Positions 23,283 to 58,870 of a stretch of 64,000 nt of DNA are shown in pieces. The notes under the pieces were generated by a model, which did not search any database, was not told the DNA's origin, and worked only from the letters and a program-made list of their open reading frames with translations. Position 1 is the stretch's first letter, and each line of letters begins with the position of its first letter. The translations under genes were made by a program, and so were the position numbers. The stretch comes from Gemmatimonadales bacterium (GTDB taxonomy: Bacteria > Gemmatimonadota > Gemmatimonadetes > Gemmatimonadales > GWC2-71-9). The DNA lies in the NCBI GenBank assembly GCA_035557715.1, contig DATMDQ010000121.1, positions 16,962 to 80,961 of the forward strand, in the 5' to 3' direction.

Positions 23283-23959
23283 CCGATATGCTGGACGATC
23301 GCTTTGACGACCAGTTGCAAGACTCGGCTCGCGATTACAACACTCCCCCGGCGACGCCCAGGGAGGAGATGTGGACGGCTATTCAGGCGCGGCGGGCGGA
23401 GGCGGAGAAGACGGAGAAGACGGAAGTATCCAGGGAAGGTGTAGTACCTATCCGTCCTCTCCGCCGTCTCCGCCCTCTCCGTTGGCCCATCGGCATCGCG
23501 GCGCTGCTGGCGCTCGGCGTCGGACTTGGCCGGATCTCGGCGCCCAAACCCGTCCCCACCACCGACCCCGTGATCGCTACATCGGTGGCCCCGCAACACA
23601 CGGGTGATGCTGCCTACCGAATTACCGCTACAGAGCACCTGGGACAGTCGGAGGCATTTCTGACGCTATTTCGCGCTTCGGTGCGCAAGGGTGGCAACGA
23701 GCTGCTTGCCTCGGCCACGGCCCGACAGCTCCTCGCCACCAATCGCCTGCTGCTCGATTCGCCGGCAGCGAGTGACGCCCGGACTCGCCTTCTCCTCCAG
23801 GATCTGGAGCTGGTGCTGGCCGAGATCGCTCAGCTCGCTCCCCGGCCCAGCTCGCCCGATCTCGATCTGATTACTGAAGGTCTCGAGCGTGGTGGAATGA
23901 TGTCCCGCTTGAGAACGGCCGTGCCTTCGGGCGCGAGCCCAACCCAAGGAGCCCTGTGA
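23279..23959 (+). CDS. Putative single-pass anti-sigma factor
   Basis: ATGA overlap with the sigma gene. Cytoplasmic N-terminus, one TM (WPIGIAALLALGVGLG), periplasmic C-terminus. Confidence 0.5.
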   Translation: MTDMLDDRFDDQLQDSARDYNTPPATPREEMWTAIQARRAEAEKTEKTEVSREGVVPIRPLRRLRPLRWPIGIAALLALGVGLGRISAPKPVPTTDPVIATSVAPQHTGDAAYRITATEHLGQSEAFLTLFRASVRKGGNELLASATARQLLATNRLLLDSPAASDARTRLLLQDLELVLAEIAQLAPRPSSPDLDLITEGLERGGMMSRLRTAVPSGASPTQGAL

Positions 23960-25416
23960 TGTACGGTCTGGTGTTCGGCGTGGCGATGGTAGCGGCTCTC
24001 GGCATGGCCGACGCGCGAGTTCCCTCTGACACGCTCGATCCGCGTGTGCCCCGTGGCTGGTTGCAGGACGATCCAGCCGATTCCCTTTACCGGCGAGCCC
24101 GGGAGACGCTGAATCGCCGCGACTATCGGACGGCGGCCGACCTCTTTGCCCAGATACCGGTTCGCTTCCCCAAGTCGGGCTACGCCGCGGACGCGCTCTA
24201 CTGGCAGGCATTCGCTCTTTACCGGGCCGGCGAGGAGCGCGATCTCCGGGCCGCGATGGCGGTCCTCAAGCAGCAGAGAAAGAGGTTCCCCAAGGCAGCG
24301 ACGCAGGGTGACGCGGCCACGCTGGAGCGCCGTATCCAAGGTGAGCTGGCGCGACGGGGGGACAGCGAGGCCGCCGCGGCCGTGGCGGCGGCTGCCGAGT
24401 CCGCAACCGATTGGCCTCCGACCCCGCCGACGCCACCAACGCCGCCGACGCCGCCGACGCCGCCGACGCCGCCCACACCACCGACGCCTCCGACACCCGG
24501 TATGGGGCGCTCCCATCGAATGGGGAGCAGTAGCTGTAAGGGAGACGACGATGACATGAAGGTCGCGGCCCTCAATGCATTGCTGCAGATGGACGAAACG
24601 CGGGCCCGGCCCGTTCTCCGCAAAGTCCTGGCACGGCGCGACACCGGCTCCGTTTGCCTGCGCCGAAAGGCGGTCTTCCTCGTCGCCCAGCAGCAGGCCG
24701 AGGGGACCGAGGACATCCTGCTCGAATCGGTCCGGACCGATCCGGATCCGGAGGTGCAGCAGCAAGCAGTCTTCTGGCTCTCGCAAGTGGGGACCGATCG
24801 GGCGGTAAACGCTCTGGATTCGATTCTGCGCTTTTCCAAGGACCCGGATATCCAGGACAAGGCGGTGTTCGCGCTATCGCAGCACGACAGCCCACGGGCG
24901 CACCAGGCGCTCCGGGTCTACGCCGAACGGGTCGAAGTGCCGGAGTCCGCTCGGGCAAAGGCGATCTTCTGGTTAGGTCAGAACGGGTCGGCGGAAGACG
25001 GTGCGTTTCTCCGTTCCCTGTACGGCCGGCTCAAGGGCGAGGAGCTCAAGAAGAAGGTGGTATTCTCGCTCTCACAGATGGGCGGCACGGAGAACGGCAA
25101 GTGGCTGCTTGGGCTCGCCCGCGATCCGGCGCAGGGCATCGAAATGCGGAAGCAGGCGCTGTTCTGGGCCGGCCAGGGCGGCGTCGCCATCGAGGAGCTC
25201 ACCGGTCTCTATGCCACTGTCACCGACCAGGCCATGCGGGAGCAGCTCATCTTCGTCTACTCTCAACGCGACGAGCCCGCCGCCCTGGACAAACTGATCG
25301 AAATTGCCCGGCGGGATCCCAACCCGGAGCTGCGCAAGCGGGCGCTCTTCTGGCTGGGCCAGTCGGAAGACCCCAGGGCGGTGCAGGTGCTCCAGGAAAT
25401 CATCGAGCAGCCCTAG
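23956..25416 (+). CDS. HEAT-repeat protein with a TPR-like N-domain and a (PPT)9 linker
   Basis: Repeated DPDPEVQQQAVFWLSQ / DPNPELRKRALFWLGQSEDPRA units. Overlaps the anti-sigma stop (GTGATG). Confidence 0.7.
   Translation: MMYGLVFGVAMVAALGMADARVPSDTLDPRVPRGWLQDDPADSLYRRARETLNRRDYRTAADLFAQIPVRFPKSGYAADALYWQAFALYRAGEERDLRAAMAVLKQQRKRFPKAATQGDAATLERRIQGELARRGDSEAAAAVAAAAESATDWPPTPPTPPTPPTPPTPPTPPTPPTPPTPGMGRSHRMGSSSCKGDDDDMKVAALNALLQMDETRARPVLRKVLARRDTGSVCLRRKAVFLVAQQQAEGTEDILLESVRTDPDPEVQQQAVFWLSQVGTDRAVNALDSILRFSKDPDIQDKAVFALSQHDSPRAHQALRVYAERVEVPESARAKAIFWLGQNGSAEDGAFLRSLYGRLKGEELKKKVVFSLSQMGGTENGKWLLGLARDPAQGIEMRKQALFWAGQGGVAIEELTGLYATVTDQAMREQLIFVYSQRDEPAALDKLIEIARRDPNPELRKRALFWLGQSEDPRAVQVLQEIIEQP
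24415..24495 (+). repeat. 9-bp tandem repeat x9 encoding (Pro-Pro-Thr)9
   Basis: cct ccg acc / ccg ccg acg ... read directly from the sequence. Confidence 0.95.
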
Positions 25417-30275: not shown

Positions 30276-31355
30276 ATGCCTGTATTTCGCTTGCGCCTCT
30301 TCGCGAGCCTCTCCGCCGCGCTGCTTTTGGGCTGCCAGGAATCGAAACCGGCCGCCCCGGTGGTCGAGATCCCTGCCTCGGGGGATACGGTCACAACCCG
30401 GGATTCGGACGTGACCGGAGCGGCGTGGCTCGAGGGAGACCGCTGGGCGATTCTGGCTGCGCCCAACGAGACTGCGGGCATCGTGGACTTCTCTGACCGG
30501 AAGATCAGCCCACTCGGTAGCGGTCGGACCAAGGCCCTGAGCAACCCCTCGACCCTCTTCGTCTCGCAGGACAGTCTGTATATCGGAGACTGGGGAAAGG
30601 CCCGCACCACGGTTTGGACCCCAGCGGGCCGGCTGATCCGTTCCATTCCAACCTCGAATGCCGCCCGCGGCGCATTACCCCGCGCCCGGGACTCCAAGGG
30701 AAACTTCTATCTGGACCAGGCTCCTCTTGCCGGCCCGGACGGCAGCGGGAACCGGGACTCGGGTGCGGTTCTGCTGCTGAAGCCCGGGCTCACTCGGGCA
30801 GATACCATCGCGAGACTTGCCCCGCTCGACATAGCCGAGGTGGTTGGTGATGCCGGCCGGCGCTTCGAACGCCGGGTGTTCGGGGGCTTGGACCGCTGGG
30901 GGGCGTTGCCGGATGGCTCGGTCTGGGTGGCCCGGGTCTACGACAACCGGGTCGACTGGCGGGCGCCAGATGGGAAGTGGACTCGTGGGCAAGCGTTGCC
31001 GGATCGGGTGCTCGAAGTCACCCGCTACGACCGGGAGCTGTTTCTACAGAAGTTTCCTCCCGAGCTGAGAGGCACAGCACAGCAGCTTCCATTCGCGCCA
31101 ATCAAGCCACCCTTCGAGGCCGCGCTCACCAGTGCTGATGGCCAGGTCTGGCTGGAAAAGAGCGGTGCCCCGGCGGATTCCTTCCGCGTCTATCACGTGG
31201 TCGATGGGCGCGGCCGGCTGGCGCAGGAAGTTCGACTCCGGAGCAAGGGGCGGGTACTTGCGGTGGGACCGCGGTCCGTCCTGGTTGCAGAATCCACCCC
31301 AGATGGGACCCGGCTCCAGCGCGTGGATCTGACGCTCCCTGCCCGCAATCCGTAG
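30276..31355 (+). CDS. Hypothetical lipoprotein, paralog A
   Basis: Lipobox LLLGC. Shares VWVARVYDNRVDWRAPDGKWTRG and KPPFEAAL...VWLEK blocks with the next gene. Confidence 0.55.
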   Translation: MPVFRLRLFASLSAALLLGCQESKPAAPVVEIPASGDTVTTRDSDVTGAAWLEGDRWAILAAPNETAGIVDFSDRKISPLGSGRTKALSNPSTLFVSQDSLYIGDWGKARTTVWTPAGRLIRSIPTSNAARGALPRARDSKGNFYLDQAPLAGPDGSGNRDSGAVLLLKPGLTRADTIARLAPLDIAEVVGDAGRRFERRVFGGLDRWGALPDGSVWVARVYDNRVDWRAPDGKWTRGQALPDRVLEVTRYDRELFLQKFPPELRGTAQQLPFAPIKPPFEAALTSADGQVWLEKSGAPADSFRVYHVVDGRGRLAQEVRLRSKGRVLAVGPRSVLVAESTPDGTRLQRVDLTLPARNP

Positions 31356-31398
31356 TTTCTCACTCCGCTCTTACCAGTTCGTCTGGAGGATGTTCCGA

Positions 31399-32505
31399 AT
31401 GAGGCTCGACTATTTCAGCTGCGCGATCGTCATGGCCCTCACCCTGGCCTGCTCGTCAGCCGAAAGCCAAAGTGGCCTGACCTTGGAGGCCAAGCTGCCC
31501 TCGTCCTTTGGCCTGCTGAGCAACGTCGTGGAGCTGAGCGATGGTCGGGTGATGTTCACGGACACCAAGAGCAAGCTTTTCTTCAGCGCCGATCTGAAAT
31601 CGGGCAAGGTGGACACGCTTGGGAAGCGGGTCGACTCTCTTCCCCAAGGCGCGCCCGCAGGGAACTACCGCTTCCCCGGCTGGGTCGCCCACCTCGCGGC
31701 CGATACCGTCGCCCTCGTGGATTTCAGCGCCATTCGGACCACCCGATGGAGCGAGCGAGGAAAGGCGCTGGACGTGCTGCCGATCAGGATCGTTTCGGGG
31801 GAGACACCGGTCCTGTTATACGACACGGTCGGTCACGGCTACAAGATCGACTACCAAGCCATTCTGGGTGGCGGCGAGCCGGGCCGCTCACTCCGGCCGG
31901 ACAGCGTTCCCGTTCTTCGGATCGCACTCAAGAGTGGTAAGGTGGACACGATCGCTCATCTGTCCACACCCGAATACGGCGACGCCAAGTTCGGGGAGCA
32001 GATCCAGCAGGCCGCCAAGGTGTTTGCTCCCAATGATCACTTCGGAGTCCTGCCGGACGGGGAGGCCTGGGTGGCACGGGGCCGGGAGAATAGGGTGGAT
32101 TGGCGAAGCCCGGACGGCAAGTGGACGACCGGAAAGGCGCGCGATTATACCAAGACCCCCGTCACCCAGGCAGACAAGGACCGAGTGCTCGCCCAGGTAA
32201 GGGAGCAAGGCAAGCAGTTCGGGATGCCTCAGGATTTGTCCATCACGTACCCCTTCGCCGAGACCAAGCCCCCATTCGACTTCGCGCTGGGGCGCGAGAT
32301 CGGAGAGGTTTGGCTGCAGCGCCCACGGGCGCAGGAAGACGCGCCCATGGTGTACGACGTGGTCAATCGGCAGGGAGTCTGGCAGCGCAGCGTCGCCCTT
32401 CCGAAAGGCGCGTCACTCTCGGGCTTCGGGGCCAAGGGAGCGGTCTACGCGGCGATCAAGGGTGCGGATGGTACGCGGACGGTAGGGAAGTTCAGACTAC
32501 AGTGA
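31399..32505 (+). CDS. Hypothetical lipoprotein, paralog B
   Basis: Lipobox LTLACSS, AWVARGRENRVDWRSPDGKWTTGK, KPPFDFAL...VWLQR. The ORF opens at ATG 31390; ATG 31399 is better spaced from GGAGG. Confidence 0.55.
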   Translation: MRLDYFSCAIVMALTLACSSAESQSGLTLEAKLPSSFGLLSNVVELSDGRVMFTDTKSKLFFSADLKSGKVDTLGKRVDSLPQGAPAGNYRFPGWVAHLAADTVALVDFSAIRTTRWSERGKALDVLPIRIVSGETPVLLYDTVGHGYKIDYQAILGGGEPGRSLRPDSVPVLRIALKSGKVDTIAHLSTPEYGDAKFGEQIQQAAKVFAPNDHFGVLPDGEAWVARGRENRVDWRSPDGKWTTGKARDYTKTPVTQADKDRVLAQVREQGKQFGMPQDLSITYPFAETKPPFDFALGREIGEVWLQRPRAQEDAPMVYDVVNRQGVWQRSVALPKGASLSGFGAKGAVYAAIKGADGTRTVGKFRLQ

Positions 32506-32550
32506 GAGGTGAGAGGTGAGAAGTGAGAGGTGAGAGGTGAGCGGTAAGAG
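32502..32550. repeat. Left arm: seven tandem heptamers GTGAGAG (variants GTGAGAA, GTGAGCG, GTAAGAG)
   Basis: Read directly from the sequence. Overlaps the TGA stop of 31399-32505. Confidence 0.95.
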
Positions 32551-33021
32551 GGGCAGTCAGTTTACAGTCAGTTTACCCGGACATGGTTGATGAGACCTCG
32601 GAGCAGTCGTTGACACCGGCGGCAGCGCTCCAAGGTCGAACCGGCTAGCTCCGCCGAAAGCAGCTGAAGTTCGCCAGTGAGCTCCAGTAACTCCGCGGTT
32701 TCCACCGCTGACCCATACGCAATATCCAAGTGATTGCGGAAACGCTTGGACGTTTTTTAGTGCATACCCCTCAGCTATGTTGAGTTGCACCGATAAGGCT
32801 GCTCGTTGGAGCTGCTCGAATATCGGGTTCGCATAGGAGTACTTCACAAGCCGTATTGCAGGTATCAACACCAGCACTACTGCATGGGCCTCTTGCCATG
32901 CCAACAGACTCTTATGATCACGCATGCCACAAGTTGAGAGGCTGAGTGCAAACTCGTGTGCCCAAACATCCCAACAGAAGCCCTAATTACGCCTAGATTG
33001 CCCTCCCATCCTTTTTGCTGA
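32551..33021. other. Lower-GC insert between the two heptamer arms, carrying the four-helix-bundle gene
   Basis: Hand counts of three 60-nt lines inside the insert give 29-32 G+C of 60, versus 42 of 60 in the adjacent line 33061-33120. Also contains an 11-nt tandem duplication agtcagtttac x2 at 32556-32577. Confidence 0.6.
32568..32925 (-). pseudogene. Four-helix-bundle protein (23S rRNA intervening-sequence protein family), frameshifted
   Basis: The N-part reads LLAWQEAHAV...QLQRAALSVQLNIAEGYALKN. After the T6/A6 run at 32753-32758 the conserved continuation SKRFRNHLDIAYGSAVETAELLELTGEL... lies in the +1 frame and ends at 32568. Confidence 0.75.
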
Positions 33022-33046
33022 TCACCTCTCACCTCTCACCTCTCAC
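33022..33046. repeat. Right arm: about 3.5 tandem CTCTCAC heptamers (reverse complement of GTGAGAG)
   Basis: Read directly from the sequence. Abuts the stop (33047-33049) of the convergent gene. Confidence 0.95.
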
Positions 33047-33769
33047 CTAGTCCAGGATGGGCGGCTCCTTGTCCGTAGGAACGTTGCGGCCCCGATCCGA
33101 GGTGCGGCGGTCCTCACGCTGGCCCTGCTCGTACCACCGGCGGGTGATCTCTCCCGCCAGCTCCCGATTCCCCAGGCCGAAAGCGAGTCCCACGGCTAGC
33201 GCGGCCGCACCGAGTATCAGCGTGAACGCCGCAGTGACGATCTCCTCCGCCACACCCACCTGCTCCAGCGCCATGAACAACGAGATGAGAATCACCGCGC
33301 CCTTCGCCAGCTTGGCCACCGTCGGCACGCCGGAGACGGCGCCGGCCGAAGCCAGGATGAGGCCGCGAACGAACTCACCCAGGATGATCCCCAGGATCAG
33401 GATGACAATGCCCGCGATGAGCGTGGGGATGAACGCGAGCATGACCCCAAACATCTCGTTGATGCTTTCCAGACCGAGTGCCGTGCTGGCAAGCAGAATC
33501 ACGATGAGCATCACCAGCCAGAAAAGCAGCTTGGTCAGGGCTCGCACCGGGTCCAGGCGGGAGCCGGTGCGGACGACGGCCTCGTCCAGGCCTCCGGCGC
33601 TGGCCATCCGGTTGAAGTCCAGCCGTTTCAGGGTGTCATCAGCCCAGCGCTGAATCTGTCGGGCGAGGAAGTAGCCGGTCAGCAGGATGACGGCTGCGCC
33701 GACGAGGGCGGGGAGAACACTGCCGATCTGTGCGGCACCGATGGAGATTCGTTCCCAGAGCTGGTTCAC
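33047..33769 (-). CDS. Membrane protein with repeated conserved-TM-helix motifs (mechanosensitive-channel-associated type)
   Basis: 240 aa with 4-5 hydrophobic helices with similar G/A/I/L-rich repeats and a charged C-tail. Confidence 0.5.
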   Translation of the reverse strand: MNQLWERISIGAAQIGSVLPALVGAAVILLTGYFLARQIQRWADDTLKRLDFNRMASAGGLDEAVVRTGSRLDPVRALTKLLFWLVMLIVILLASTALGLESINEMFGVMLAFIPTLIAGIVILILGIILGEFVRGLILASAGAVSGVPTVAKLAKGAVILISLFMALEQVGVAEEIVTAAFTLILGAAALAVGLAFGLGNRELAGEITRRWYEQGQREDRRTSDRGRNVPTDKEPPILD

Positions 33770-37370: not shown

Positions 37371-37856
37371 ATGGCCGAGCTTCATTATATGGAGATGGGC
37401 TGGTCCGGCTCTGGATGGATGGATCCGCTGCCGATGGAGAACATCCCTTCTTCAGCGCCGTCCTCCTCCTCACCGTCATCATTCAACGACTACAACGAGC
37501 CGGCCGCCCGTCCGCGGAAAAAGACCGCTAAGAAGACGGCCACCAAGAAGTCGGCCAAGAAGTCCGGCAGAACGGCGAGGAAGGCCGCCAGGAAAGCGGG
37601 GAGATCGGCGAGGCGTTCGGCTCGCAAGAGCGCCCGCACGGGTAGGAAGGCTGCTCGTAAGGCCGGTCGGTCAGCCAAGCGTTCAGCACGCAAGAGCGTC
37701 CGAAAGGTTAAGAAGGCTGTTCGTAAGGTCGGTCGGTTAGCCAAGCGCTCGGTCCGCAAGAGCGCCCGAAAGGGTAAGAAGGCTGCTCGTAAGGCCGGTC
37801 GGTCAGCCAAGCGTTCGGCTCGAAAGAGCGCCCGAAAGGGCCGCAAGTCGTCCTAG
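37371..37856 (+). CDS. Highly basic repeat protein (histone H1/AlgP-like composition)
   Basis: GGAGGA 6 nt upstream of ATG 37371. Short acidic/aromatic, Ser-rich N-part, then four 22-aa K/R/A/S repeats (KAARKAGRSAKRSARKSARKGK). Confidence 0.6.
   Translation: MAELHYMEMGWSGSGWMDPLPMENIPSSAPSSSSPSSFNDYNEPAARPRKKTAKKTATKKSAKKSGRTARKAARKAGRSARRSARKSARTGRKAARKAGRSAKRSARKSVRKVKKAVRKVGRLAKRSVRKSARKGKKAARKAGRSAKRSARKSARKGRKSS
37581..37844 (+). repeat. 66-bp tandem repeat x4 inside the basic protein gene
   Basis: Units start at 37581, 37647, 37713 and 37779. Copies 2-4 are nearly identical by eye. Confidence 0.9.
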
Positions 37857-43590: not shown

Positions 43591-43705
43591 AAGGACGGGA
43601 AGGACGGGAAAGTTCTGAAGGATGTAAGACGAGATAATGGACGTGAACTACCTTTGTGCTGCCCCCCTCCCCAACCTTCCCGACTTTCCCGTCTTTCCCG
43701 TCCTT
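43591..43705. repeat. Inverted 9-mer arrays: (AAGGACGGG)n ... (CCCGTCYTT)n
   Basis: 43591-43612 pairs with 43684-43705 at 21 of 22 positions. Degenerating 9-mers continue into the 71-nt loop. Starts 1 nt after the selD stop. Confidence 0.9.
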
Positions 43706-43722
43706 CCCTTCTATCTTCCGGC

Positions 43723-49298: not shown

Positions 49299-49327
49299 GC
49301 TGTCATCCTGAGCGTAGCGAAGGATCT
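49299..49327 (+). repeat. Half copy of hairpin repeat family H2 (GCTGTCATCCTGAGCGWAGCGAAGGATCT)
   Basis: 28 of 29 nt identical to 54792-54820. The right half of the hairpin is absent here. Confidence 0.85.
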
Positions 49328-49349
49328 ACTTGACAATCAAAGGGGGTAG

Positions 49350-52286: not shown

Positions 52287-53957
52287 ATGCTGCCTCCTCC
52301 GCCTGTCCGGGGCGTCTACCGAACCGACGCGAGGGCCCGGGCCGCCTATGCCGAGGGAGCCGGCATCTATCGCATCCTTCCCCTGGCGATCTGCCGCGCT
52401 GCCGACTTCGAGGACCTGAAAACCCTGATCTCGTGGGCGTCCCAGCACCGCGTTCCGCTCGTCCCCCGCGGAGCAGGGAGCGCCATGGGTGGGGGGAACG
52501 TGGGTGCCGGCGTGGTCGTGGATCTGACCGGCACATCCGAGCGTCGGCTCGAGATCCATCCCGCGCGCCGCCGCGCCTTCACCAACGCGCGGATCACTCA
52601 CGCCGAGCTCGGCTCGGCCGCCGCACTTCACGGTCTGCGGCTACCCCCGGACCCGTCAAGCAGCCGGTGGGCCACGCTCGGCGGCATGGTCTCCACTAAC
52701 GCTGCAGGACCCAGATCGGTCCGATTTGGCAGCGTGCGCCGGTGGGTGGAGGCGCTCACGCTGGTGACAGCGGAGGGAGAGTCCGTGAGGCTGGCGCGCG
52801 GGAAAGCGGGGAAGCGGGGAAGCGGGGAAGCAGAACGGCTTCGCGTACCAGCGATCGAGCGCTTTCATCGCGATGCGGCGCCCCGGATTCAGGCTGCGTC
52901 CAAGCTCATCACCGATCGCTTTCCCAAGACCAGGAAGAATTCGTCGGGCTACGCCCTCGATGCCTACCTCGCCTCCGGCGACGTCCTGGATCTGATCATC
53001 GGGGCCGAGGGCACGCTTGGCATCGTCACCGAAATCGAATGGCGGCTGGATAAGGTGCCGGCGTTCCAGGCCGGGCTCCGGGTGCATCTGCCCTCGCTCC
53101 AACGCCTGGCCGACGTCGTCGGCGCCTTGAGCGAGTACGAGCCTTCCGCCCTGGAATTGCTGGATCGATCCTTTCTCGATCTCCTCGGAGAGGACCGGCT
53201 GTCGCGCGCAGGACTCGGCACTGACACGGAAGCCATAGTGTTGGTCGAGCTGGAGCGGGACGACGCCAGCGCCCTGCGCCAGGCCCTCAGTGAGGCTACC
53301 GATGCGGTATCGAGCTGGGCGACTACCGTCGATACGGCGTACTCCCCGCCCGAGGCGGAACAGCTTTGGGCCATTCGCCACGCGGCGAGCCCGATCCTGG
53401 CCGGGCTTCCGGATAGTCGGCGCTCGCTTCAGGTGATCGAGGACGGATGTGTGCCGGTCGAGAGGATGGGCGAGTACATCGCGACGGTTCGAGGGTCCGC
53501 GGCGGAGCACGACCTCCCGGTAGTGATGTTCGGCCACGCAGGCGATGGACACATTCATGTGAACCTGGTGCCGGAGCTGGCCCGCTACGGGTGGGAGGAG
53601 GCAGTTGACCACCTGTTCCACGAAGTCACCGCCGCCGTCATCCGCCTCGGCGGCACGCCGACGGGCGAGCACGGCGATGGGCGGCTCCGGGCCGGCACAC
53701 TGGTGGATACCTATGGCCCGGAGGTCCTGGATCTTTTCCGCCAGGTGAAGAAGGCCTTCGACCCACTCGGAATTTTCAATCCCGGGATTATTCTTCCGTC
53801 CGGCGAGCCGCCCCTTGGACAGTTGAAGGTCGGACCCGGCGCCGTATCTATCCCGGCCGATATTCAGCGAGCCCTCCGCGAGATCGAGGTTAGCGGAGGG
53901 TATGGGCGGAGTAGGTTGGACTTAGCAGGTGAAGAGGGTCTAGGGTCGAGGGTCTAG
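52287..53957 (+). CDS. FAD-linked oxidase (GlcD/D-lactate dehydrogenase-like)
   Basis: VPLVPRGAGSAMGGG FAD-binding PCMH-type N-domain. C-terminal FGHAGDGHIHVN and GEHGDG. Confidence 0.85.
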   Translation: MLPPPPVRGVYRTDARARAAYAEGAGIYRILPLAICRAADFEDLKTLISWASQHRVPLVPRGAGSAMGGGNVGAGVVVDLTGTSERRLEIHPARRRAFTNARITHAELGSAAALHGLRLPPDPSSSRWATLGGMVSTNAAGPRSVRFGSVRRWVEALTLVTAEGESVRLARGKAGKRGSGEAERLRVPAIERFHRDAAPRIQAASKLITDRFPKTRKNSSGYALDAYLASGDVLDLIIGAEGTLGIVTEIEWRLDKVPAFQAGLRVHLPSLQRLADVVGALSEYEPSALELLDRSFLDLLGEDRLSRAGLGTDTEAIVLVELERDDASALRQALSEATDAVSSWATTVDTAYSPPEAEQLWAIRHAASPILAGLPDSRRSLQVIEDGCVPVERMGEYIATVRGSAAEHDLPVVMFGHAGDGHIHVNLVPELARYGWEEAVDHLFHEVTAAVIRLGGTPTGEHGDGRLRAGTLVDTYGPEVLDLFRQVKKAFDPLGIFNPGIILPSGEPPLGQLKVGPGAVSIPADIQRALREIEVSGGYGRSRLDLAGEEGLGSRV

Positions 53958-54030
53958 GGTCTAAGACAACCCGGCATCGATCTCGACCCGCCTCTAGACT
54001 CTAGACTCTAGACCCTAGACTATCGAGACC
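53936..54030. repeat. Inverted heptamer arrays: (GGGTCTA)4 ... (TAGACYC)4
   Basis: Left arm 53936-53963 encodes the last residues and the stop of the oxidase. Right arm 53995-54030 ends at the thyX ATG. The arms are imperfectly complementary (about 1 mismatch per unit). Confidence 0.9.
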
Positions 54031-54783: not shown

Positions 54784-54791
54784 TCGGGCTC

Positions 54792-54868
54792 GCTGTCATC
54801 CTGAGCGAAGCGAAGGATCTCTCTGTCATCGGAGAGATCCTTCGGTCGTTTTACTCCCTCAGGATGAC
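54792..54868. repeat. Full copy of hairpin repeat family H2
   Basis: gtcatcctgag (54795-54805) pairs with ctcaggatgac (54858-54868). Inner pair gaaggatctctc with gagagatccttc. Confidence 0.85.
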
Positions 54869-54876
54869 AATCACCC

Positions 54877-54904
54877 CAGACTCCGGACTCCCGACTCCCG
54901 ACTC
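54877..54904. repeat. Four tandem heptamers CNGACTC (CAGACTC, CGGACTC, CCGACTC x2)
   Basis: Read directly from the sequence. The only partner on the left is a single AGTCGGG at 54782-54788, overlapping the thyX stop. Confidence 0.8.
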
Positions 54905-54998
54905 CTCCAAAAACTCATCCCGACTTCTTCCCCAAAAACTATTGTGGTATGAAAAACATTTTCTTACCTTAGATGCATCGATCGAAGGTACTCGTCTC

Positions 54999-57153: not shown

Positions 57154-57653
57154 GCGGCACCCTTGTCTCACCGCGTCTCCGCCACCTCTCCGCAGCCGAC
57201 CGGGGCCGCATCGAGGAAATCACTCGTGCGGTGGGACTCTTCCGTTCGGATGAGATTCCTGTCGCACTCGAGGTCTTCGACGAAGCTGTGCGCGACGGCC
57301 CCCGGCCAGAGCCCTACAGCGCGCTGGGGGCGGAGGTCGAGGGGAGATTGTCCGGTTGGATCTGCTGGGGACCCACCCCCTGTACCCTTGGCACCTATGA
57401 TCTCTATTGGATGGCGGTGGATCCCGCGCTCCAGGGCTCCGGCATCGGCACTGCACTGGTGCTCGAAATGGAGCGCAGGCTCACCGGTCTTGCCCGGCTG
57501 ATCGTGGTGGAGACCGCCGGTCGTCCGGACTATGCCGCCACTCGGCGGTTCTACGAGAGTCGGGGCTACCGTCCAACCGCGAGGATCCCCGACTTCTATG
57601 CCCCGGGCGACGACCAGGTGGTTTTTGTGAAGGAAGTGAGAGGTAAGAGGTAA
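57150..57653 (+). CDS. GNAT family N-acetyltransferase
   Basis: Acetyl-CoA motif A: VDPALQGSGIGTALV. TTGA overlap with the upstream gene. The last codons lie in the heptamer array. Confidence 0.8.
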   Translation: MSGTLVSPRLRHLSAADRGRIEEITRAVGLFRSDEIPVALEVFDEAVRDGPRPEPYSALGAEVEGRLSGWICWGPTPCTLGTYDLYWMAVDPALQGSGIGTALVLEMERRLTGLARLIVVETAGRPDYAATRRFYESRGYRPTARIPDFYAPGDDQVVFVKEVRGKR

Positions 57654-57733
57654 GAAGTAAGAGGTAGGAAGTAAGAGGTAGGGCGTGGGAACGTGAGTAG
57701 ATGTCCCTCTCACCTCTCACCTCTCCTCTCACC
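57636..57733. repeat. Inverted heptamer arrays (GTRAGAG)7 - ~20 nt - (CTCTCAC)~4, without cargo
   Basis: Left arm 57636-57684, right arm 57705-57733. Same unit family as 32502-32550 / 33022-33046. Confidence 0.9.
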
Positions 57734-57748
57734 TTTTGGGAGGGCAGC

Positions 57749-58870
57749 ATGGAAACCTGGCAGGAAGTCCTCAGAAAGAACTCGATCGCCTCGCTCGACG
57801 CGCTGGCGGAGAAGTTTGGCTCGGAGAACTTCCCCGAGCTCGACCGGCTCCGGCAGGCAGCCGACAACTTCGAGTTCCGGATCTCGCCCGCCATGGTTGA
57901 CCTCATCAAGTCGCCCGACGACCCGATGTGGCGCCAGTACGTGCCCTCGGTCGAAGAGCTGGACGTGGTGGACGGCATCGTAGACTCGCTCAACGAGGAC
58001 GCCGACAGCCCGGTTCCCAACATCACCCATCGCTATCCGGACCGGGCCCTGTTTCTGGTCTCGCCGGTCTGCGCCACCTACTGCCGGTTCTGCACCCGCC
58101 GACGCAAGGTCGGCGATCCCGAGAAGATCCCCATGTCCCAGTTCGAGAGCGCCTTCCGCTATCTGGAGGAGCACACCGAGATCCGGGATGTGATCATGTC
58201 CGGCGGCGACCCGCTGCTGCTCAACGACCGGCGGCTTGAAGTCATTCTGACACGGTTGCGGTCGATTCGACACATCCAAATCATCCGGATCGGCAGCCGG
58301 ATCCCCTGCCATCTGCCCGAGCGGATCACGCCCGAGCTCTGTGCCATGCTGAAGAGATTCCACCCGCTCTTCATCAATACCCACTTCAATCACCCCGACG
58401 AGCTGACCCCGGCCGCGGTGGCCGCGCTCGGTATGCTGGCCGACGCCGGCATCCCGCTCGGCTGCCAGACGGTGCTGTTGCGGGGGGTGAACGACACCCC
58501 GGCCGTCATGATGGAGCTGATGCAGAAGCTGCTCATGGCCCGGGTCCGGCCTTACTACATCTATATGGCCGACCAGGTGGCCGGCGCCGAGCATTTCCGT
58601 ACCTCGGTGCAGACCGGCATCGAGATCATGCAAGCCCTTCGGGGCTGGACCAGCGGCCTAGCTGTTCCGGCTTTCGTGATCGATGCCCCAGGCGGCGGCG
58701 GCAAGATCCCGATCCTGCCGGAGTACGTGGAGAGCATGAATGAGGAAGAGGTCGTGCTCAGGAACTTCCGGGGGGAACGCTATGTCTACCGGCAGCCGCG
58801 GGAGGAAGCCGGAGTCATCGACATGAAGAAGCCGCGGAAGCGGGCAGCGAAGAAGCGGAGGACTGCTTAG
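57749..58870 (+). CDS. kamA: Lysine 2,3-aminomutase family radical SAM enzyme (KamA)
   Basis: CATYCRFCTRR (CxxxCxxC), GGDPLLL, typical KamA length. GGGAGGG 5 nt upstream of ATG 57749. The track ORF from 57701 reads through the repeat arm. Confidence 0.9.
   Translation: METWQEVLRKNSIASLDALAEKFGSENFPELDRLRQAADNFEFRISPAMVDLIKSPDDPMWRQYVPSVEELDVVDGIVDSLNEDADSPVPNITHRYPDRALFLVSPVCATYCRFCTRRRKVGDPEKIPMSQFESAFRYLEEHTEIRDVIMSGGDPLLLNDRRLEVILTRLRSIRHIQIIRIGSRIPCHLPERITPELCAMLKRFHPLFINTHFNHPDELTPAAVAALGMLADAGIPLGCQTVLLRGVNDTPAVMMELMQKLLMARVRPYYIYMADQVAGAEHFRTSVQTGIEIMQALRGWTSGLAVPAFVIDAPGGGGKIPILPEYVESMNEEEVVLRNFRGERYVYRQPREEAGVIDMKKPRKRAAKKRRTA

Follow-up and report, generated by a model that had tools for sequence, protein, structure and literature searches.

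A gene of about 118 codons for a four-helix-bundle protein related to Avd, the accessory protein of diversity-generating retroelements (DGRs), lies between inverted arrays of tandem heptamers where two convergent protein-coding genes meet in a Gemmatimonadales bacterium (GenBank assembly GCA_035557715.1, contig DATMDQ010000121.1). The whole stretch of 64,000 nucleotides (nt) that was analysed is called the window below. The protein belongs to the family PF05635/TIGR02436, known from the intervening sequences (IVSs) of 23S ribosomal RNA (rRNA), an affiliation that an initial annotation of the window had recognised. The parts of the element stand in a constant order: a 5' heptamer arm, a leader of ~60-100 nt, the Avd-like gene, a short trailer and a 3' arm complementary to the 5' one. 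It fits the structural definition of an IVS bearing an open reading frame (ORF) except in its location outside rRNA. We propose, with a probability of about 0.62, that the locus is an IVS-type selfish cassette, consisting of arms and gene together and living outside rRNA, and that some cargo-less heptamer hairpins are deletion derivatives of such cassettes.

Both halves of this association have a history. An ORF in a 23S rRNA IVS was described in 1993 and has no known role; Ralph & McClelland (1993) proposed IVSs to be mobile, with the ORF as a component of that mobility (cited in PMC4990558). The IVS of Coxiella, 428-444 nt long, has a terminal stem of 28 bp that RNase III cuts and a G+C content below that of the genome, and its ORF is a member of the family (PMC4990558). 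PF05635 has also been recognised as an Avd homologue (PMC10053308). Bacterial genomes, on the other side, contain an excess of intergenic heptamer repeats without a known origin or function (short tandemly repeated repetitive sequences, STRRs, 1990; genome-wide surveys cited in PMC4679880 and PMC4692102). A search of the full-text literature found no link between the PF05635 family and heptamer arrays; subscription papers are thinly covered there, so an earlier description is possible. What is new here is the link between the IVS gene family and heptamer arrays, ORF-bearing IVSs and the inverted heptamer arrays of Xanthomonas being already known; the initial claim of a previously uncharacterised cassette thus holds for the association and not for its parts.

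The cassette in the window

The features of the element, in the orientation of its gene and with arrays as defined by Tandem Repeats Finder (TRF), are the following:

33022-33048, minus strand: 5' arm, (GTGAGAG) x3.9, starting at the TAG stop of the MscS-like gene; reported by TRF as TCACCTC x3.9 with 100% matches, the complement of a GTGAGAG-type array, and also found among the inverted-repeat pairs
32926-33021, minus strand: leader, 96 nt from the 5' arm to the ATG; degenerate TCAACT at the -10-like position of the leader alignment
32568-32925, minus strand: four-helix-bundle gene (PF05635/TIGR02436), 118 amino acids (aa) when corrected, ATG 32923-32925, TGA 32568-32570; frameshifted
32753-32758, minus strand: A6 homopolymer that breaks the frame (T6 on the plus strand); A5 in the intact allele
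32552-32567, minus strand: short trailer from the stop codon to the 3' arm, overlapping an 11-nt direct repeat, CAGTCAGTTTA x2.1 (TRF)
32502-32551, minus strand: 3' arm, (CTCTCAC)-type x7.1, read as GTGAGAG x7.1 on the plus strand with 88% matches; its outermost unit gives the TGA of the convergent 371-aa gene

The arms coincide with the stop codons of both flanking genes, as had been noted initially: the TGA (32503-32505) of the plus-strand ORF 31390-32505 (371 aa) falls within the first heptamer, and the TAG (33047-33049) of the minus-strand ORF 33047-33769 (240 aa, MscS-like, PF05552) lies at the last one. A 14-mer representing a double unit, GTGAGAGGTGAGAG, occurs 11 times in the window at up to two mismatches against 0.62 expected, a number that none of the shuffles reached, and all 11 occurrences are confined to the cassette locus or to 57636-57727. 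The two arms pair over 27 nt at 96% or over 39 nt at 85%, and minimum-free-energy prediction for the RNA of the gene strand yields a 31-bp closing stem formed by the arms (free energy -223 kcal/mol, z -4). The 471 bp between the arms have a G+C content of 53.3%, against 64.9% for the window and ~65% for the flanks, so that the insert is of lower G+C as first described, although the value of about 70% then given for its surroundings was too high. No Rfam family matched at E <= 1 in 32300-33250, which includes leader, arms and trailer, and a consensus scan of the window copy detected neither a strict sigma-70 promoter nor an intrinsic terminator.

The minus-strand ORFs 32557-32925 and 32568-32729 overlap and are the halves of a single gene split by the A6 run; the initial annotation had identified the four-helix-bundle gene and missed the break in its frame. 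Removal of one A from this run gives the 118-aa protein, and it is only with this correction that the family matches are obtained: PF05635 with E 2e-19 (70.1 bits, cut-off 33.8, profile positions 2-105 of 106) and TIGR02436 with E 8e-20 (71.2 bits, cut-off 24). In the near-identical ENA contig L001 the run is A5 and the ORF is intact, and the JGI contig L082 has A6 like the window. The long arm of L001 comprises 8 heptamers versus 7 in the window; very close strains thus differ in their arrays as well as in the homopolymer. Given its frameshift, the window copy may be decaying.

A profile of the homologues matches the solved structures 2GSC (XCC0516 of Xanthomonas, E 4e-9) and 2RLD (E 7e-7), entries with five chains each, a number that need not equal the oligomeric state. 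The DGR protein bAvd is a pentamer. Among homologues the ratio of non-synonymous to synonymous divergence (dN/dS) is 0.06-0.13, with saturated synonymous sites, and over the long run the protein is under strong purifying selection. Its relatives number 903 at E < 1e-5, mostly on contigs of ~1 kb. No second four-helix-bundle gene is present in the 64-kb window, and the neighbouring genes include no reverse transcriptase with template and variable repeats between or beside the arms. The protein matched no family of the PADLOC defence-system models at E <= 0.01, and a search for phage carriage gave no tblastn match in 50,697 phage records and no confirmed relative in IMG/VR.

Two side observations concern the ends of the gene. 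Many close homologues are annotated as proteins of 101-103 aa without the first ~15 residues; a 1-nt deletion at codon 15 in one relative (L105) shows one route to such short forms, and a fair share of the environmental copies may be broken or may use an internal GTG start. At the other end, the 11-nt direct repeat (CAGTCAGTTTA x2.1 at 32554-32576, TAAACTGACTG on the gene strand) overlaps the gene's own stop codon and supplies further TGA and TAA stops; it can be likened to the TAACTGA heptamers that are found upstream of genes in Beggiatoaceae and cyanobacteria (PMC4679880).

Inverted arrays bracket the gene across Gemmatimonadales

A scan of one genome per species gave 80 loci, nearly all from metagenome-assembled genomes (MAGs) of Gemmatimonadales; this sample represents one subfamily, chosen by peptide patterns. 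The score of a locus was that of the best ungapped inverted repeat formed by the 250-nt stretches upstream and downstream of the gene, with a cut at >=16, and 207 mock genes at other positions of these loci served as controls. The score is at least 16 in 61 of the 69 testable Gemmatimonadales loci and in 0 of the 207 controls (Mann-Whitney p 1e-36), with a median of 25 at the gene loci versus 9 at the mock genes. The window element is therefore no one-off, and the association that the initial annotation wished to see checked in other four-helix-bundle genes is found.

The bracketing arrays are inverted tandem 7-mers or 8-mers, the orientation of which is fixed relative to the gene: the coding strand of the 5' arm is rich in purines, and this arm comprises 2-29 units in the TRF-defined cassettes. 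The leader is typically 55-100 nt long (up to ~180 in a few loci), the ORF ~354 nt and the trailer typically 2-55 nt (up to 75), which are parts of an interior of typically 420-500 nt (up to ~580). In all 57 cassettes with TRF-defined arms the G+C content of the interior is below that of the flanks, in line with the initial expectation from the window copy. The arm unit varies by locus (GTGAGAG, GTGAGCG, GTGAACG, GTGAGAA, GTGACCG, GGGAACT, GCGAAAA and the 8-mer GAGAACGG), and the two arms of one locus are complementary, with 1683 Watson-Crick positions versus 141 mismatches over 57 arm pairs.

The cassettes also have features that bear on the host and on the expression of the gene. Read inward, the unit contains a stop triplet in 46/57 of the 5' arms and 48/57 of the 3' arms, against 1/57 when read outward and 32% expected from composition; together with a period of 7 or 8, never a multiple of three, this means that any host frame is closed within ~21 nt, or three units. 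Inward-reading host genes stop within ~20 nt of the outer edge of the arm in 34/57 cassettes for the 5' side and 47/57 for the 3' side, often with the stop inside the array. A -10-like TANNNT box ending 4-10 nt (mode 6) 5' of the start codon occurs in 26/57 cassettes versus 0-4/57 control windows, which suggests transcription of the cassette gene from its own promoter into a leaderless mRNA.

Joint inheritance and duplication of arms and gene

The distance between arm units tracks that between the proteins (Mantel r -0.31, p 5e-4), and in all pairs with at least 80% aa identity the arm units are within one mismatch of each other. Thus, the arms are inherited together with the gene. The MAG CAVPGI01 (loci L048/L069) shows that they are also duplicated together: it contains two full cassettes that are 95% identical, separated by 2.9 kb that include a kinase gene, and both cassettes have (GAGAACGG)n arms with the same order of variant units. 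This MAG is the one genome in which multiple near-identical copies were seen, the window having one copy in 64 kb.

A third copy in L048 (copy C), situated directly after tRNA-Ala, is an internal-deletion derivative with a loop of ~70 nt: what remains is the 5' arm with the leader's first ~20 nt, the final ~17 nt of the ORF, the trailer and a 3' arm of 14 units. Since it keeps the ends of leader and trailer within the same arms, the direction is from cassette to hairpin. A further locus, L028, holds a 5'-truncated cassette with a 344-nt loop. The decay of single copies thus takes the form of frameshifts, 5' truncation and internal deletions, and its product can be a cargo-less array hairpin; it is in this sense alone that the initial suggestion of a cassette creating repeat hairpins has stood.

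As a side observation, at least five (GAGAACGG)n elements are clustered around the tRNA-Ala and tRNA-Gln genes of L048 (3438-3511, 6107-6179): the two full cassettes and the deleted copy, together with solo arms and a hairpin whose loop measures 226 nt.

Occurrence of the package in other phyla

A tblastn search with a fragment of XCC0516 against plasmids returned 35 records, 12 of which were inspected. Clear inverted GGGCAGGA arrays surround the gene on a Gemmatirosa plasmid. Among the cyanobacteria, it lies between inverted GGGTGTA/G arrays in Nostoc punctiforme and Calothrix brevissima and is flanked by clear inverted arrays in Stanieria and Geminocystis. In Anabaena sp. 90 (plasmid pANA02, L157) it has GGTGACA/GGGAACA x~20 arms and is placed between cas6 and cas4, and in Picosynechococcus PCC 7003 (L159) inverted arrays surround it between cas10 and cmr3. 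Pseudanabaena galeata (L164), again between cas6 and cas4, shows very long arrays in a more complex arrangement; Nostoc 7120 has a 3' arm only, beside an insertion sequence (IS), and Calothrix 7716 has weak arrays. In Riemerella the gene is surrounded by inverted AAGGTTT/C arrays. With the cases described below, the package is kept in at least four phyla and in a fixed orientation. The cas-operon cassettes, which concern type I-D systems (cas6/cas4) in two unrelated cyanobacteria and a type III-B system (cas10/cmr3) in Picosynechococcus, could point either to a hot spot of insertion common to them or to a functional link.

In the Azospirillum lipoferum hit (L161) the gene is found in its classical setting: a true 23S rRNA gene (Rfam LSU, 1943 bits) has an insert of ~470 nt with the four-helix-bundle ORF, the arms of which, TTCAGAGGACGGATGACAGAGGACGGAGGACAGA and its complement, show a 7-nt period. 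The likeness to the stem-plus-cargo geometry of rRNA IVSs that had been drawn from the window is thereby matched in a real 23S rRNA IVS.

In the Xanthomonadales, namely Xanthomonas arboricola, X. sacchari and Rhodanobacter soli (L166-L170), the gene lies between accB and accC: (GGGAATC)n follows immediately on the accB stop and (GATTCCC)n extends as far as the accC ATG. With an XCC0516-type gene between two genes of an essential operon, accC has to be expressed through or after the cassette. In X. campestris ~186 GGGAATC arrays have been catalogued, including 70 inverted pairs (Rehm et al. 2015, PMC4692102), and array #15 of that catalogue is listed, without comment, at the start of XCC0516.

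The orthologous junction in relatives

A metagenome scan with the MscS-like neighbour collected 72 loci with adh-msc-p371-p359 synteny and 49-100% identity. The junction between msc (the MscS-like gene) and p371, at which the window cassette resides, is hypervariable among them (percentages are identities of the MscS-like protein):

L082 (100%): the same cassette at the junction
L083 (98%): empty hairpin with the same unit as the window cassette (GTAAGAG/GTGAGAG arms) and a 9-nt loop
L084/85, L088, L096, L100/102 (90-96%): no hairpin, stop codons 9-15 bp apart
L105 (88%): homologous cassette with GTGAGAA arms, with its own 1-nt deletion at codon 15 or a downstream GTG start
L089, L090/91, L099, L106, L117/119: GTGAGAR-type arms with other loop contents
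L087/104, L093, L094/109: unrelated units GTCGGGA, GCGGTGA and GTCACGA

Orthologous junctions free of the insert, which the initial annotation had named as a check, are thus present in relatives (L083-L085, L088, L096, L100/102). Beyond this set, the MAG locus L045 (MscS-like protein 83% identical) has a cargo-less CACGAAA hairpin at the junction and, beyond the neighbouring gene, a different cassette with ~20 units of GGTAGCGA. In the species genomes, the closest four-helix-bundle homologues (83% and 79% aa identity) are in unrelated, non-syntenic contexts. Between L082 and L105 the non-synonymous divergence of the cassette (0.13) is within the range of its flanks (0.07-0.16); its synonymous divergence is 0.74 versus 0.44-0.59 for the flanks, a comparison confounded by differing codon bias. 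This junction is most simply explained by an insertion long ago and repeated decay and loss since then; the window copy is probably such an old insertion, vertically inherited and by now decaying.

These data also bear on an explanation in which nothing is mobile: the gene would be an ordinary resident with a structured insulator, the arrays being slippage-made terminators or mRNA-stabilising stems, and its absences would be gene losses. The flank-like divergence of the cassette at the window junction and the GTGAGAR-type arms across the whole clade agree with it, as do the strong purifying selection (dN/dS ~0.1) and the long-stable accB-accC position across Xanthomonas and Rhodanobacter. We nevertheless consider it improbable, for the closest genome homologues are non-syntenic, the copies in 23S rRNA, cas6/cas4, cas10/cmr3 and accB/accC occupy what are insertion positions, and L048 has two 95%-identical copies and a remnant separated by unrelated genes; moreover, the G+C content is consistently below that of the host and decay is frequent (frameshifts in the window and L105, truncation in L028).

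Cassette neighbours in the window are the MscS-like protein, a zinc alcohol dehydrogenase and two proteins without Pfam or NCBIfam match. The latter, encoded at 30276-31355 and 31390-32505, are paralogues of each other (~30% identity) and remain a tandem pair throughout the clade; L045, a more distant relative, apparently has only one of them.

Cargo-less hairpins and their relation to the cassettes

In the 828 kb of sequence that were fetched, the loops of inverted array pairs are bimodal, with 36 at <=150 nt and 52 at 401-600 nt. The latter are nearly all four-helix-bundle cassettes, with one checked exception, L012; considered as an alternative cargo (514-nt loop), this proved to be an ordinary 192-aa ORF between weakly matching arrays and was not counted. 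Cargo-less hairpins within 3 kb of a cassette match the unit of that cassette beyond permuted pairs (p 2e-4, n=10). In the window, the cargo-less hairpin of the same unit family that had been pointed out initially is present:

57636-57734, no strand: (GTAAGAG/GTGAGAG) x6, 25-nt loop, (CCTCTCA) x4.4 (TRF)

It follows a 167-aa ORF, the stop of which is in the array, and precedes a co-directional ORF (57701-58870).

Several other repeats of the window were observed alongside. Hairpins of unrelated units are present at 23403-23481, 43591-43712 and 53935-54021 (9-mers CGGAGAAGA and AAGGACGGG and the 7-mer AGGGTCT; loops of 22-66 nt), and unpaired arrays at 52798-52831 and 54879-54905 (GCGGGGAA x4.2 and GACTCCC x3.9). 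A palindromic element with a core TCATCCTGAGCGAAGCGAAGGA paired with its complement ...CCTTCG...CTCAGGATGA occurs twice in the window (54790-54875, 49300-49330) against 0.01 expected, and is also found inside ~10 cargo-less heptamer hairpin loops of related contigs (L087, L089, L090/91, L095, L099, L104, L109, L110, L081, L003); it looks like a hairpin-in-hairpin, akin to the repetitive extragenic palindromic (REP) sequences, of soil bacteria. Lastly, a 66-nt tandem repeat x3.5 (37613-37840, 85% matches) and the 9-nt repeat GCCGCCGAC x9 (24414-24494) have periods that are multiples of three and may be coding repeats.

The coexistence of cassettes and empty hairpins can be read in the opposite direction, as the initial annotation did when it had the cassette target repeat hairpins. 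Host hairpins that grew by slippage, of terminator- or REP-like nature, would then be the pre-existing target, and a naked cassette of ~450 bp would insert in their loops, comparable to IS1397 in REP loops or group IIC introns at terminators. Such hairpins do outnumber cassettes in the window, which is unbiased in this respect (four hairpins and lone arrays versus one), their loops also host other inserts (the TCATCCTGAGCGAAGCGAAGGA element in ~10 loops, a nested hairpin in L106), and L083 has an empty hairpin with the cassette's own unit exactly at the site orthologous to that of the window; gene-less inverted heptamer arrays are likewise frequent in Xanthomonas (~70 pairs, PMC4692102). Against this, the arm unit follows the phylogeny of the cargo, the L048 duplicates have the same arms at different sites down to the order of variant units, and the deletion derivative of that MAG shows the direction from cassette to hairpin. 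Furthermore, helix 45 of 23S rRNA has no pre-existing heptamer hairpin, yet the arms of the Azospirillum IVS are 7-nt-periodic. We therefore regard the targeting of existing hairpins as unlikely.

A different relation between gene and hairpins would obtain if the protein acted in trans on all hairpins of its unit, binding, copying or protecting them, so that the arms of the gene would merely be a repeat copy beside a master gene, as with the REP-associated tyrosine transposases (RAYTs) and the hairpins composed of REPs (REPINs). The Xanthomonas accB-accC cassette indeed has GGGAATC arms, the unit of the ~186 arrays genome-wide (PMC4692102), hairpins near Gemmatimonadales cassettes have the cassette's unit, and Avd homologues bind nucleic acid and partner with reverse transcriptase (PMC10053308, PMC6182149). 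The protein itself has no catalytic domain, though, and no partner enzyme was identified; the window has hairpins of at least five unrelated units and a single, broken four-helix-bundle gene. Nor was an internal template for the repeat unit found: a telomerase-like origin of the arrays was considered and rejected, as the arm unit or its complement occurs at no conserved place of the interior, a small excess being due to extra arm copies. All this makes an action in trans very improbable.

Mechanistic interpretation

An IVS-type cassette living outside rRNA might work as follows. In read-through transcripts the arms would form a stem of ~30 bp that RNase III cuts, as has been shown experimentally for rRNA IVSs; the cut would excise the cassette RNA and leave functional host RNAs. 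Such excision at the RNA level would explain the tolerance of the element in rRNA and in the accBC and cas operons. The gene would also be expressed from its own promoter as a leaderless mRNA, and the whole would spread as a unit via a rare mechanism involving the small nucleic-acid-binding protein.

Several points weigh against this proposal. No transposition event with clean boundaries or identical flanks was caught among the loci compared, and no target-site duplication is visible, direct repeats flanking the arms being absent from L048 copies A to C as well as from the window. No recognisable transposase, recombinase, nuclease or polymerase is encoded by the cassette, whose sole gene is that of the 118-aa helical bundle. 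At the window junction, the flank-like non-synonymous divergence of the cassette means that vertical descent with repeated loss fits as well as mobility does. The arm mismatches over the 57 pairs show no strand bias (53 G:T, equivalent to G:U in RNA, versus 40 A:C), so that RNA pairing on the coding strand is not demonstrated by them and a hairpin at the DNA level is equally possible; a leaderless transcript from the cassette's own promoter would moreover be devoid of the 5' arm. The cargo-less hairpins of the window have several unrelated units, often with the nested TCATCCTGAGCGAAGCGAAGGA palindromic element, and not all of them need a cassette origin. Finally, most of the sequences compared are MAGs or metagenome contigs, and the cross-phylum sample is small, with 12 plasmid loci and one ancestral Xanthomonadales insertion.

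The finding ties together two old puzzles, the role of the IVS protein and the origin of bacterial heptamer repeats, by way of a package that is found in rRNA, essential operons (accBC), cas operons and at gene ends, and that decays into gene-less array hairpins. A much broader proposal, which we find doubtful at present, would make the PF05635 cassettes the autonomous masters of widespread mobile hairpins: the STRR-like, GGGAATC and Gemmatimonadales arrays as well as the stems of rRNA IVSs would be their arms or gene-less derivatives, spread by the Avd-like protein with host enzymes (RNase III, polymerase or reverse transcriptase) in a manner unlike any known transposase. Both puzzles are now approachable with available strains and the already crystallised XCC0516. 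There are practical consequences too: the cassettes break short-read assemblies, most homologues being found on contigs of ~1 kb, and annotation is affected since the arms supply the stop codons of neighbouring genes.

Comparison with known systems

The closest parallel is the 23S rRNA IVS of Leptospira, Coxiella and Haemophilus, which likewise combines a PF05635 protein, a length of ~430-470 nt and a terminal stem of ~28-35 bp around the ORF with a G+C content below that of the host and a sporadic distribution; the Azospirillum IVS additionally has 7-nt-periodic arms like those of the window element. Unlike these, the window element lies between convergent protein genes, has overt tandem heptamer arms of variable length and appears to carry its own promoter, and its excision by RNase III would be by analogy with them.

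The GGGAATC arrays of Xanthomonas and the cyanobacterial STRRs are similar in being intergenic heptamers of 2-26 units near gene 3' ends, often as inverted pairs, with lengths that vary between close relatives. The papers on them treat the arrays as G-quadruplex-forming or slippage-prone and make no tie to a gene family or to IVSs. The Gemmatimonadales units differ from GGGAATC in not being of the G-quadruplex type and in varying by locus.

REP/REPIN sequences with their RAYT share the arrangement of one protein gene between inverted short repeats and the dispersal of gene-less hairpins of the same repeat in the genome. Whereas RAYT is a Y1/HUH transposase of known chemistry, the four-helix-bundle protein has no catalytic motif, and REPs are single palindromes while the ends of the cassette are tandem arrays. 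MITEs, the miniature inverted-repeat transposable elements, offer a precedent for the derivatives, since a coding element that loses its interior is reduced to a short structured remnant with the same inverted ends (compare L048 copy C and L028); unlike MITEs and IS elements, the parent here has no transposase, shows no target-site duplications and has tandem arrays of variable length as its ends. With the DGR accessory protein Avd (bAvd, PDB 4DWL) the cassette protein shares the homologous four-helix-bundle fold (cd16375; PMC10053308), small size and basic character, but it is encoded by a single gene between inverted arrays, with no adjacent reverse transcriptase, template or variable repeat.

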